From Escherichia coli (GTDB lineage: Bacteria > Pseudomonadota > Gammaproteobacteria > Enterobacterales > Enterobacteriaceae), in the NCBI RefSeq assembly GCF_003334255.1, contig NZ_QOWU01000101.1: 6,464 nucleotides of DNA; one strand, given 5' to 3'. Below the pieces are notes generated by a model. It did no database searches, was not told the DNA's origin, and saw only the letters and a list, made by a program, of their open reading frames with translations. This document shows, piece after piece, positions 5,031-6,217 of the stretch (positions within the stretch are counted from its first letter, which is position 1; each line of letters opens with the position of its first letter). Made by a program: the position numbers and the translations under genes.

Positions 5031-5344
5031 GTGGCTGGAAGAAGTGGCGCTGGGCTGAAATCCTGATACTCCGGCAGTGTGCGGGAACGATGAGAGTCGA
5101 AAGCATCGGTTATCTGATTGGTCGTAGTGAGTCAGCCGTCAGGACGAAAGCGCGGGAACTGGGTATCAGCATGATTTTACGGGGTGATTTTCACCCGTCG
5201 GCAAAATATTCACAGCGTGATATTGAGCTGGCGCGGCAACTGCATCAGCGTGGCGTACCCCGACGGGAAATTGCCGAAAAGTTTGGGATGAAGTTGGGCG
5301 CAGTGAATAACTACGTTTATTTCGACAGGAGGGTTCAGGAGTGA
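5027..5344 (+). CDS. Small protein with two HTH-like segments, about 105 aa; function unknown
   Basis: GTG 5027 overlaps the upstream TGA (5028-5030). ATG 5090 is an alternative start giving 84 aa. HTH-like segments [21 protein letters not shown] and [19 protein letters not shown]. Confidence 0.6.
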
Positions 5345-5643
5345 GGGTGAGGATTTATATCGCCGGTCCGATGACGGGATATGAAAATTTCAACCGCGAG
5401 GCGTTTCACAGGGCGGAAGATGCGCTGAAACGGGAAGGGCATACCGTTTTAAACCCGGCAGTACTTCCGGACGGGCTGACTCAACCACACTACATGGATA
5501 TTTGCATGGCAATGCTCCGTTGCGTGGATGCGGTTTACATGCTGAAAGGCTGGCAGCAGTCGGCAGGTGCAAGGGCTGAGCTGGCACTGGCGGAGAAACT
5601 GGGCCATGCGGTGATTTTTCAGGAGGTGGGCAGTGAATATTGA
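5341..5643 (+). CDS. DUF4406 protein, nucleoside 2-deoxyribosyltransferase-like fold, 100 aa
   Basis: N-terminal RIYIAGPMTGY and the later SAGARAELALA glutamate motif are typical of the NDT/Rcl-like fold. AGGAGGG at 5327-5333 precedes GTG 5341, which overlaps the upstream TGA. GTG 5347 is an alternative start. Confidence 0.75.
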   Translation: MRVRIYIAGPMTGYENFNREAFHRAEDALKREGHTVLNPAVLPDGLTQPHYMDICMAMLRCVDAVYMLKGWQQSAGARAELALAEKLGHAVIFQEVGSEY

Positions 5644-5872
5644 CCCGGCGATAACGATTGATATGGCCCTGAACACCGGCCTGGCACTTCTTGGTTATTT
5701 CTACATCATGTTCTGCAGCGGACGATGGCTGTCACTGTTGTTCATGAAAAAATGGAATAAACGCCGTAAGCAGGAGCAACGCCAGAAGGCAATGGATGCA
5801 TTTTCGAAGCCTTCGGAATTGACGGCATGGAACCAGGGGATCCAGCTCGCGCAATCAGCAGAGGGGGTGTAG
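5633..5872 (+). CDS. Small predicted membrane protein (one TM helix followed by a basic stretch), 69-79 aa
   Basis: Hydrophobic segment ALNTGLALLGYFYIMF followed by KKWNKRRKQEQRQK. GTG 5633 overlaps the DUF4406 stop by 11 bp; ATG 5663 is an alternative start. Confidence 0.45.
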   Translation: MNIDPAITIDMALNTGLALLGYFYIMFCSGRWLSLLFMKKWNKRRKQEQRQKAMDAFSKPSELTAWNQGIQLAQSAEGV

Positions 5873-5902
5873 TAATCCTTGTATATCGGAGTGAAGAGAA
5901 AA

Positions 5903-6217
5903 ATGACGATCACAAAACAACGAGTAGAAAAAATCATATATCGCCATGAAATGGGACTGAACAGCGATGTCACTGCCGAAGAGGTTTATGACCTGGCTGT
6001 ACTGGCGCTGAATTTATCAAATATCGCAAACCTGAAGCGATACGAGCTTGATATGGATGGTTGCGACTCGTGCGGTCAGGATTGTGGCGCAGATATGACT
6101 GAAGATCCTGATGGTGATTATGTCCTGTTTGATGACGTGGTTAAGTTGTTTGAATTTGATACAACCACTCAAAAGTTAGAAATCCCGGCAAAGGAGGCAG
6201 CCAGTGAGCAAGATTGA
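5903..6217 (+). CDS. Hypothetical acidic protein with a CDSCGQDC cysteine cluster, 104 aa
   Basis: ATG 5903 lies downstream of GGAG at 5888-5891; the track's 5879 start is a TTG. The C-terminal half is strongly acidic (DMDGCDSCGQDCGADMTEDPDGDYVLFDD). The stop overlaps the next gene's start region. Confidence 0.6.
   Translation: MTITKQRVEKIIYRHEMGLNSDVTAEEVYDLAVLALNLSNIANLKRYELDMDGCDSCGQDCGADMTEDPDGDYVLFDDVVKLFEFDTTTQKLEIPAKEAASEQD

Follow-up and report, generated by a model that had tools for sequence, protein, structure and literature searches.

A DUF4406 gene in a Rac-like Escherichia coli prophage encodes a predicted minimal member of the NDT/DNPH1/MilB superfamily

The DUF4406 gene and its prophage setting

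The window (the whole 6,464-nt stretch of DNA that was analyzed) matched E. coli JE86-ST05 (NZ_AP022815.1) at 100% identity; in that record the gene under study is annotated as WP_001545907.1, "DUF4406 domain-containing protein". Its coding sequence occupies positions 5341–5643 on the + strand, which also carries all of the features described below, and runs from a GTG start to a TGA stop to give a 100-aa protein. The earlier note had located its ORFs correctly, and the 100-aa frame with its SAGARAELALA motif was confirmed in the ORF list. An AGGAGG Shine-Dalgarno-like hexamer was read from the sequence at 5327–5332, 8 nt 5′ of the start codon, and the TGA of the upstream gene (5342–5344) overlaps that start as GTGA. 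An HMM search matched the protein to Pfam DUF4406 (PF14359; E=2.6e-36, model positions 2–91 of 91), and a match to PHROG 355, "nucleoside 2-deoxyribosyltransferase", was obtained at E=4.7e-48; both match strengths were far above chance. The ORF is a genuine, uninterrupted gene on which purifying selection acts, with dN/dS values mostly of 0.1–0.2 against ~60 relatives. NCBIfam held no model for the DUF4406 protein or its neighbors, and PADLOC-DB returned nothing for it or for intact DUF4752 at E values up to 1. The gene is unremarkable and had been catalogued before; its family is known but uncharacterized, comprises 12,366 clusters at 50% identity and occurs in 625 of 50,697 phage genomes. 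In a full-text literature search, DUF4406 appeared in three papers, none of which, judged by title and abstract, dealt with its function, and no DUF4406 assay was found; the terms DUF4752, PF14359 and PF15944 appeared in no paper.

The DUF4406 gene belongs to the early-right operon of a lambdoid, Rac-like E. coli prophage. It comes after the O-like, P, DUF1627 and HTH genes in a series whose stop and start codons overlap; according to the PGAP annotation, such overlap of neighboring genes was the rule throughout the operon. A promoter or terminator belonging to the DUF4406–DUF4752 pair itself gave no signal above shuffled expectation. The annotated neighborhood in this prophage contained no dNTP pyrophosphohydrolase partner and no defense or anti-defense partner genes. 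Nothing unusual marks the locus: the gene is of the accessory kind typical for a Rac-like prophage in decay.

Immediately downstream, positions 5633–5949 contain a frameshifted DUF4752 pseudogene (Pfam E=9.9e-24), labeled "DUF4752 family protein, frameshifted" by PGAP. The small membrane protein described at this place in the earlier note corresponded to a 79-aa ORF (5633–5872) that does exist on the + strand, with a hydrophobic segment at residues 11–29 (mean Kyte-Doolittle 1.41) followed by 8 K/R within residues 38–52, but it is the 5′ part of the frameshifted DUF4752 rather than an intact gene. It aligned to positions 1–63 of the 84-position Pfam model, its last 22 residues were out of frame, and the original frame resumed in an ORF at 5827–5949. 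DNA alignments mapped a 1-nt deletion to the T4 run at 5801–5804, which is T5 in four relatives. The intact DUF4752 protein is 94–105 aa long, as exemplified by a 105-aa copy in O157:H7 FRIK944. At two further loci (L006 and L007), near-identical DUF4406 genes were found beside a DUF4752 gene broken by a different, independent lesion. Programmed frameshifting at the T run was rejected because relatives encode DUF4752 in one frame with T5 and because the lesion differs in L006 and L007. A 169-aa DUF4406–DUF4752 "fusion" (P0003) proved to be the frameshifted read-through of the sequence and hence a gene-call artefact.

Fold and superfamily placement

The AF2 model of the DUF4406 protein (pLDDT 94.2, pTM 0.86) bore out the NDT-like fold that the earlier note had proposed: the top Foldseek PDB matches were all NDTs, DNPH1, MilB and BcmB, targets of 135–165 aa of which DUF4406 covered about half. 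In the model, the protein folds into three alpha/beta layers, and the predicted nucleophile Glu sits in the helix that follows strand 3, as is characteristic of the superfamily; the protein is predicted to be a minimal form of the NDT/DNPH1/MilB fold with four strands and three helices. At the level of sequence, a PDB search with the single DUF4406 protein gave 1t1j alone (E=1.4), and the NDTs were reached only with the family profile, whose best profile-to-sequence match was T. brucei NDT 2a0k (E=9.9e-05) with the Glu aligned. Alignment by hhalign to single sequences of DNPH1 (E 0.035) and LlNDT (E 0.12) was statistically weak on its own. The closest solved structure, PA1492 (1t1j, Pfam DUF1937), belongs to a different Pfam family and is 19% identical to the DUF4406 protein; it was deposited merely as "hypothetical protein", so that the match adds no function, and the literature search yielded nothing functional on DUF1937 or PA1492.

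Similarity to the DNPH1/Rcl and MilB/BcmB/BlsM enzymes extends from the Rossmann-like fold to the Glu nucleophile in helix 3 (E80 vs E104), the Tyr after strand 1 (Y6 vs Y24) with a glycine-rich loop there facing the phosphate, and the Ser at −6 (S74 vs S98 of DNPH1 and S97 of MilB) followed by Gly (G76 vs rat G89). In contrast to this group, DUF4406 is ~100 rather than ~145–175 aa long, has four instead of five strands, lacks the partner-subunit helical extension, the second phosphate ligand and an E55/H56-type helical element, carries Cys for the triad Asp, and is similar in sequence to a degree detectable by profiles alone. The NDTs (L. leichmannii 1f8x, T. brucei 2a0k, C. thermalis 8pqt) share with DUF4406 the fold, the Tyr and the Glu nucleophile. 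They differ in having the 5′-OH-binding Asp at −6 where DUF4406 has Ser, Asp or Asn at the triad position occupied by Cys in DUF4406, and a C-terminal region, absent from DUF4406, that completes the site in trans.

DmtZ, represented by gp53 of Gordonia phage Ghobes and by the N-terminal domain of the Arthrobacter phage Wayne protein, was considered as a DUF4406 member and rejected, as Ghobes gp53 scored 1.1 bits against the family profile and had no PHROG match. As Pfam offered no HMM for DmtZ, its authors built one themselves (PMC12884076). Experiments have shown this phage enzyme to hydrolyze dAMP and to transfer deoxyribose-5-phosphate, and a dNTP pyrophosphatase is found fused to it or next to it (PMC12884076), a linkage that DUF4406 shares in some actinophages. 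Like DUF4406, DmtZ is a phage-encoded NDT-superfamily protein, with its Tyr6 and Glu nucleophile essential (PMC12884076); its 5′ pocket is without an Asp, its triad residue is Asn77 rather than Asp, and it is dNMP-specific. Unlike DUF4406, it is 161 aa long, uses a trans-acting Trp124, and works in the synthesis of 2-aminoadenine genomes, a process absent from lambdoid phages.

Predicted active-site residues

Alignments combined with helix periodicity outlined a putative active site. Codons 6–13 (YIAGPMTG, 5356–5379) encode Tyr6, the candidate equivalent of the triad Tyr, and the G9-P-M-T-G13 loop, the candidate equivalent of the DNPH1 phosphate loop, which aligned with 2a0k, DNPH1 (G27–G31 loop) and LlNDT. 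In rat DNPH1, phosphate is bound by the backbone of Ile18-Arg19-Gly20 (PMC3834327, PMC10603095). Glu80 (codon GAG, 5578–5580) of the SAGARAELALA motif is the predicted nucleophile; it is 99% conserved and aligned with the Glu of 2a0k, DNPH1 E104, LlNDT E98 and DmtZ E103. Both assignments agree with the earlier note, which had placed the catalytic Glu in SAGARAELALA and singled out IYIAGPMTG, whose Tyr indeed aligned with the catalytic Tyr of NDT/DNPH1-type enzymes, including DNPH1 Y24. Six residues before Glu80, the 100% conserved Ser74 (codon TCG, 5560–5562) aligned with the Ser that binds the 5′-phosphate in DNPH1 (S98) and MilB (S97) (PMC10603095), and Gly76 aligned with the equivalent of rat DNPH1 Gly89. 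Across the family, position 6 is Y in 85% and F in 13% of the members, and G9, G13 and G76 are conserved at 100%, 96% and 97%, respectively. The DNPH1 residues matched here act as nucleophile, in phosphate binding and in the triad (PMC10603095, PMC3834327).

The −6 position is Asp in the nucleoside-specific NDTs (LlNDT D92 and the Asp in 2a0k); the phosphate-specific enzymes DNPH1, MilB and DmtZ have Ser or Thr there. The DUF4406 protein carries the DNPH1/MilB-type arrangement of Ser at −6 plus loop backbone amides for the 5′-phosphate, represented by S74, G76, G9 and G13, and this match of Ser74, Gly76 and the GPMTG loop to the DNPH1 phosphate binders points to a deoxynucleoside 5′-monophosphate, rather than a nucleoside, as the probable substrate. 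The F17Y substitution in MilB moves its preference towards deoxyribose (PMC10603095), and the DUF4406 protein has Tyr at the F17 position. The signatures of Tyr6 and Ser74 thus favor a 2′-deoxynucleoside 5′-monophosphate over a signaling nucleotide as the predicted substrate.

The catalytic motif, which had been described as apparently intact, departs from a complete site at two places. The third triad position, Asp or Asn in the characterized enzymes, is Cys55 (codon TGC, 5503–5505), so that the Tyr-Asp(or Asn)-Glu triad is represented by Tyr6 and Glu80 with Cys as the third residue. Cys55 aligned with DNPH1 D80 and DmtZ N77 and lay at or adjoining LlNDT D72; among its close relatives in the DUF4406 family this position is C in 69% and D in 15%, and it is Asp in the actinophage members. 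The N77D substitution in DmtZ lowered kcat/Km ~100-fold (PMC12884076). Second, the protein stops at residue 100, where strand 4 has just been completed in the AF2 model, and is therefore devoid of the trans-acting elements represented by DNPH1 S128′, the LlNDT C-terminal region and DmtZ W124′, and the active-site segment normally provided by the partner subunit is absent. Likewise missing is a second ligand for the phosphate, the role filled by Ser128′ in trans in DNPH1 or by Arg23 in MilB: there is no C-terminal extension, and the position of DNPH1 Arg30/MilB Arg23 aligned with Thr12. The residue map suggests a specific hypothesis, in which the putative phosphate-binding Ser/Gly and deoxyribose-selecting Tyr are present and Cys takes the place of the triad Asp in the enterobacterial members. 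DUF4406 is very large and includes no assayed member, so that establishing its biochemistry would change the annotation of thousands of phage genes.

Proposed function and competing explanations

We tentatively propose, with a confidence slightly short of even, that the DUF4406 protein is a minimal NDT/DNPH1/MilB-superfamily enzyme that cleaves the N-glycosidic bond of a dNMP and, acting alone, trims the nucleotide pool for phage replication. The fold, the conserved residues and their DNPH1 counterparts, the precedent of DmtZ, the pyrophosphohydrolase links of some DUF4406 relatives, purifying selection and the operon position speak for this reading; Cys55, the missing trans-acting elements, the weak single-sequence alignments and the lack of a pyrophosphohydrolase partner in this prophage speak against it. 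Induction or infection would lead to synthesis of the protein from the early-right operon alongside the replication proteins of the phage. The 5′-phosphate would be held by the G9-P-M-T-G13 loop together with Ser74 and Gly76, and Tyr6 would orient Glu80 and disfavor a 2′-OH. Glu80 would then attack C1′, releasing the base and leaving a covalent deoxyribose-5-phosphate enzyme intermediate, to be resolved by water or possibly by another base. While phage DNA is being replicated, the nucleotide pool would be trimmed or sanitized without any part played by the DUF4752 remnant.

The replacement of the triad Asp/Asn by Cys and the missing trans-acting elements are also compatible with a non-catalytic nucleotide-binding protein, for instance a sensor or sponge, that uses its pocket solely for binding. 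The superfamily includes inactive binding versions (PMC9503650), and the bare "hypothetical protein" label of PA1492 (1t1j) accords with such a role. We consider this explanation unlikely, given that Glu80 and Tyr6 are near-invariant across thousands of clusters, which is more typical of catalysis, and that catalytic pyrophosphohydrolase domains occur fused to DUF4406 in relatives. A true DUF4406 fusion to a MazG-like PRA-PH domain was found in phage Yeet (gp156), DUF4406 of phage Ariel neighbors genes annotated as MazG-like and DUF5664, and BFVD matches named dATP/dGTP diphosphohydrolase contain the DUF4406 fold. The actinophage relatives that are fused or adjacent to dNTP pyrophosphohydrolases keep Asp55 and are distant from the protein studied here. 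Phage Ariel gp162 (126 aa) and Kuleana gp54 (123 aa), examined as dCMP deaminase/MazG fusions, turned out to be single-domain DUF4406 proteins with drifted names. Phage DUF4406 genes as a whole carry conflicting names: NDT, hydrolase, MazG-like and dCMP deaminase.

A true nucleoside 2′-deoxyribosyltransferase, swapping bases between deoxynucleosides for salvage, is the function implied by the name of PHROG 355 and by many phage annotations, and it agrees with the NDTs being the best sequence and Foldseek matches and with the conserved Glu80 and Tyr6. The PHROG name, however, is an annotation and not an assay, and the protein scored below the family threshold against Pfam Nuc_deoxyrib_tr (PF05014; E=0.055, 14.1 bits). 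The residues expected of EC 2.4.2.6 were also lacking, as the 5′-OH-binding Asp (LlNDT Asp92) is replaced by the invariant Ser74, as in the phosphate-specific enzymes, the triad Asp by Cys55, and the C-terminal residues contributed by the neighboring subunit are absent. These differences make base exchange between nucleosides improbable.

Equally doubtful is TIR-like cleavage of NAD+, NMN or an immune signal built on ribose (e.g., cADPR isomers), with the protein serving as a phage counter-defense or a prophage defense effector. No PADLOC model matched, the neighborhood is devoid of defense or anti-defense partners, the equivalent of Tyr6 has been tied to exclusion of 2′-OH sugars in MilB (PMC10603095) and DmtZ (PMC12884076), and the NAD-linked viral members of the superfamily are solely ARC-type (PMC9503650).

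A more specific variant of nucleotide cleavage, to which we assign a low probability, would make the enterobacterial Cys55 branch a distinct, stripped-down nucleotide N-glycosidase acting on a modified or danger-signal deoxynucleotide, and lambdoid phages would employ it against nucleotide-sensing host immunity, which it would blunt, rather than in bulk pool metabolism. The Cys55 branch co-varies at P43, G45 and M58 and is without the trans-acting C-terminus. A methylated or damaged dNMP from host DNA breakdown is an example of a substrate under such a reading.

The earlier note had further coupled the DUF4406 protein to the downstream single-pass membrane protein as a two-gene functional unit. 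The two ORFs overlap by 11 nt, the pair recurs in two diverged backgrounds (97% and 83.5% DNA identity), and it is adjacent in 428 of 5426 E. coli genomes, but the sampled adjacency rows came mostly from one O157:H7 lineage, gene overlap is common to the whole operon, and DUF4752 is frameshifted here and broken by another lesion in L006 and L007. Among 80 related viral loci from IMG/VR, DUF4752 adjoined DUF4406 in 8, an ead/Ea22-like gene was found downstream in 33, and 12 other downstream families completed the 14 observed. The pairing is accordingly one mosaic arrangement among at least 14, which does not support coupling. A functional unit of the two genes is thus extremely improbable and already largely refuted for this locus. 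Adjacency was not kept across diverged relatives, DUF4752 adjoining DUF4406 in none of those at 67% identity, and the two genes also occur apart: VT2-Sakai carries DUF4752 without DUF4406, and in phage D6 DUF4752 lies 1.7 kb from DUF4406.

The DUF4406 gene and its prophage operon

The 100-aa protein described in the earlier note is encoded as stated there, by ORF 5341−5643 (plus strand), and matches Pfam DUF4406 (PF14359) from end to end (E=2.6e-36) and the NDT (nucleoside 2-deoxyribosyltransferase) family PF05014 with just E=0.055. RefSeq already names it (WP_001545907.1, DUF4406 domain-containing protein). Comparison with ~60 distinct relatives gave dN/dS values mostly of 0.1−0.2, indicating purifying selection on the protein. 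DUF4406 is a very large family, comprising 12,366 clusters at 50% identity (E≤0.001), and tblastn gave matches in 625 of the 50,697 phage records, ranging from actinophages to vibriophages; no characterised DUF4406 protein was found in the literature, and PADLOC returned no match for DUF4406.

Four complete E. coli chromosomes match the whole 6464-base window at 100% identity; in one of them, JE86-ST05 (NZ_AP022815.1, 1193953−1200416), it sits in a Rac-like lambdoid prophage inserted beside yccA and ordered integrase, exonuclease, dicB, the window, more accessory genes, hokD, DUF968, rusA, Q and lysis genes. The window codes for YdaS/YdaT-type regulators, an O-like replication protein, P, DUF1627, a small HTH protein, DUF4406, DUF4752 and an ead/Ea22-like gene, and PHROG matches to a CII-like activator, a replication initiator and a P-like helicase loader were consistent with this layout. 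Neighbouring genes of the rightward operon abut or overlap throughout, and no promoter- or terminator-like signal beyond shuffled expectation was detected between them. The GTG start of DUF4406 and the TGA of the upstream gene share the bases GTGA, with AGGAGG ahead of the start at 5327−5332.

A match to the full length of Rfam RF00039 (70.1 bits) placed the DicF antisense sRNA at 54−105 on the minus strand, just upstream of dicB; in the source genome, dicB is the gene immediately to the left of the window. The DUF1627 protein (4296−5030), whose gene directly follows P in the position of lambda ren, matches its own PHROG 630 and, weakly, Ren-like exclusion protein families (phrog_142, E=3.1e-05). 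The ead/Ea22-like gene starting at the right end of the window (6204−6464) is truncated according to PGAP, and further downstream (18204−20174 of comparison locus L001) lie a hypothetical gene with a frameshift and a DUF551 gene that is split; pseudogenes are accumulating in this prophage. Within this decaying prophage, DUF4406 is a typical member of a catalogued family and is already annotated, making the locus of modest interest; the useful outputs are a residue-level hypothesis for DUF4406 and the correction of its neighbour to a pseudogene.

Fold and active-site residues

An AlphaFold2 model based on 68 aligned, diverse members of the family (mean pLDDT 94.2, pTM 0.86) showed the layout strand1-helix1-strand2-helix2-strand3-helix3-strand4. 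The top Foldseek matches in the PDB consisted only of NDTs (T. brucei, C. thermalis, L. mexicana and B. psychrosaccharolyticus) and the nucleotide N-glycosidases human and rat DNPH1, MilB and BcmB, all with probability 1.0 and a TM-score of ~0.75 normalised to the query, only ~0.5 normalised to the target. The family profile also matched T. brucei NDT by sequence (E=9.9e-05). Together, these matches confirmed the NDT-like fold proposed previously, in a protein that is a truncated core covering about half of the characterised enzymes.

To compare active sites, DNPH1 and L. leichmannii NDT (LlNDT) sequences, checked against PDB chains, were aligned to the family profile. The two single-sequence alignments are statistically weak (E of 0.035 and 0.12, respectively) and agree with each other, with the alignment of the T. 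brucei NDT structure 2a0k and with a local alignment of the phage NDT-superfamily enzyme DmtZ. In DNPH1, the triad consists of Y24, D80 and E104, the last carrying the covalent intermediate (PMC10603095). Tyr6 (Y in 85% of the family, F in 13%) aligned with DNPH1 Y24 and DmtZ Y6, and Glu80 (99% conserved) with DNPH1 E104, LlNDT E98 and DmtZ E103. The catalytic motif, described earlier as apparently intact, retains these two residues, but its third position is occupied by Cys55 (codon 5503−5505; C 69%, D 15%), which aligned with DNPH1 D80 and DmtZ N77, adjacent to LlNDT D72. The N77D substitution in DmtZ lowered kcat/Km ~100-fold (PMC12884076). Position 55 is Asp in DUF4406 of the actinophages Ariel, Yeet and Aminay and Cys in enterobacterial members including the window protein, where it co-varies with P43, G45 and M58, which suggests two putative functional subfamilies inside PF14359. 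The window protein has nothing past strand 4 and, unlike the characterised enzymes, has no counterpart of the partner-subunit residues DNPH1 S128′ and DmtZ W124′ or of the LlNDT C-terminal region. Alongside the conserved Tyr6 and Glu80, a role as a nucleotide binder devoid of catalysis appears unlikely.

Several of the residues that contact phosphate in the relatives have aligned counterparts. DNPH1 holds the phosphate by S98 and the partner-subunit S128′, and MilB keeps S97 and uses R23 (PMC10603095); rat DNPH1 binds it through Ser87, the Ile18-Arg19-Gly20 backbone and Gly89 (PMC3834327). Ser74 (100% conserved) is the counterpart of DNPH1 S98 and MilB S97, Gly76 (97%) that of rat DNPH1 Gly89, and the G9-P-M-T-G13 loop (G9 100%, G13 96%) that of the DNPH1 loop whose backbone amides bind phosphate. 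Nucleoside-specific NDTs carry Asp six residues ahead of the Glu (LlNDT D92; also Asp in 2a0k), where phosphate-specific enzymes have Ser or Thr; a true NDT is quite improbable here. Having Tyr instead of Phe as the first triad residue has been linked to deoxyribose preference in MilB (PMC10603095) and DmtZ (PMC12884076). Taken together, these sequence features point to a 2′-deoxynucleoside 5′-monophosphate as the predicted ligand. Hydrolysis of NAD+ or a signal nucleotide is, like a true NDT activity, quite improbable.

Predicted activity and phage relatives

The best-supported reading, which we favour tentatively, is a minimal DNPH1/MilB-like N-glycosidase: the enzyme would act on a deoxynucleoside 5′-monophosphate and, expressed alongside the replication genes, may shape the nucleotide pool. 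Of the characterised phage enzymes, DmtZ comes closest: it hydrolyses dAMP, transfers deoxyribose-5-phosphate, and occurs either fused to the dNTP pyrophosphatase DutZ or next to it (PMC12884076). Equating DmtZ with Ghobes gp53 through published residue numbers, we excluded it as a DUF4406 member by sequence comparison. A parallel architecture nevertheless exists for DUF4406. Mycobacterium phage Yeet gp156 (1180−1926 of L090) fuses DUF4406 to a MazG-like PRA-PH pyrophosphohydrolase domain, and phage Ariel gp162−gp164 (1474−2332 of L086) carry the same two parts as separate neighbouring genes, gp162 being DUF4406 (E=1.3e-24) and gp164 matching the C-terminal half of the fusion family phrog_12019, beside a gene annotated as DUF5664, a dATP/dGTP pyrophosphohydrolase (PMC12884076). 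BFVD structures that bear the name 'dATP/dGTP diphosphohydrolase N-terminal domain-containing protein' contain the fold as well. For at least the Asp55 branch, these observations support a logic that runs from dNTP through dNMP to base plus sugar-phosphate.

Deposited names for DUF4406 proteins are inconsistent ('deoxycytidylate deaminase', 'MazG-like pyrophosphatase', 'hydrolase'), as in Arthrobacter phage Kuleana gp54 (1477−1848 of L087), Ariel gp162 (1474−1854) and Aminay gp56 (709−1503 of L091). The misnamed proteins are single-domain or N-terminally extended; in Aminay gp56, the N-terminal 160 aa had no Pfam match. The first two names on single-domain actinophage proteins were rejected as evidence of fusions and attributed to name drift.

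The downstream DUF4752 pseudogene

The ORF at 5633−5872, previously read as a small membrane protein, does encode a polybasic stretch after a hydrophobic segment, but it represents the 5′ portion of a DUF4752 gene and not an intact one. In an alignment with intact copies from VT2-Sakai, O157:H7 FRIK944 and three viral contigs, the window showed a 1-base deletion in a T run (T4 at 5801−5804, T5 in all compared copies). The intact protein is 94−105 aa long, and its conserved C-terminal part (...FFEAFGIDGMEPGDPARAISRGGVVILVYRSEEKN...) is out of frame in the window; PGAP labels 5633−5949 as frameshifted. The IMG/VR loci L006 (3280−3625) and L007, with DUF4406 genes 99% and 98% identical to that of the window, carry another lesion in DUF4752, a 4-bp ATGA deletion before an A run (compared with the window 5740−5750 region). 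Independent decay of DUF4752 has therefore occurred at least twice next to a DUF4406 gene that stayed intact and constrained.

The evidence also went against the proposed coupling of the two genes. In complete E. coli genomes they were adjacent in 428 of 1171 matching records, the sampled rows being largely one O157:H7-type lineage plus one diverged pair at 83.5% identity. DUF4752 lay immediately downstream in only 8 of the 80 closest IMG/VR loci, and an ead/Ea22-like gene (33 loci) and a 63-aa protein (14 loci) were found there among 14 downstream families; no relative at ~67% identity had an adjacent DUF4752. VT2-Sakai carries DUF4752 without DUF4406, and in the P1-like phage D6 DUF4752 is a gene of its own, 1.7 kb downstream of DUF4406 in the same operon. 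A two-gene unit of DUF4406 and a membrane protein is scarcely credible, and the ORF overlap is the usual packing of this operon, not the mark of a dedicated pair. An apparent DUF4406-DUF4752 fusion in a Logan assembly (P0003, 169 aa) was rejected as an artefact of reading through frameshifts located where the two genes meet and within the A run. The DUF4406 gene of Escherichia phage D6, orf89 (2486−3097 of L088), encodes 203 aa comprising an N-terminal DUF4406 and an uncharacterised C-terminal extension (PHROG 5781).
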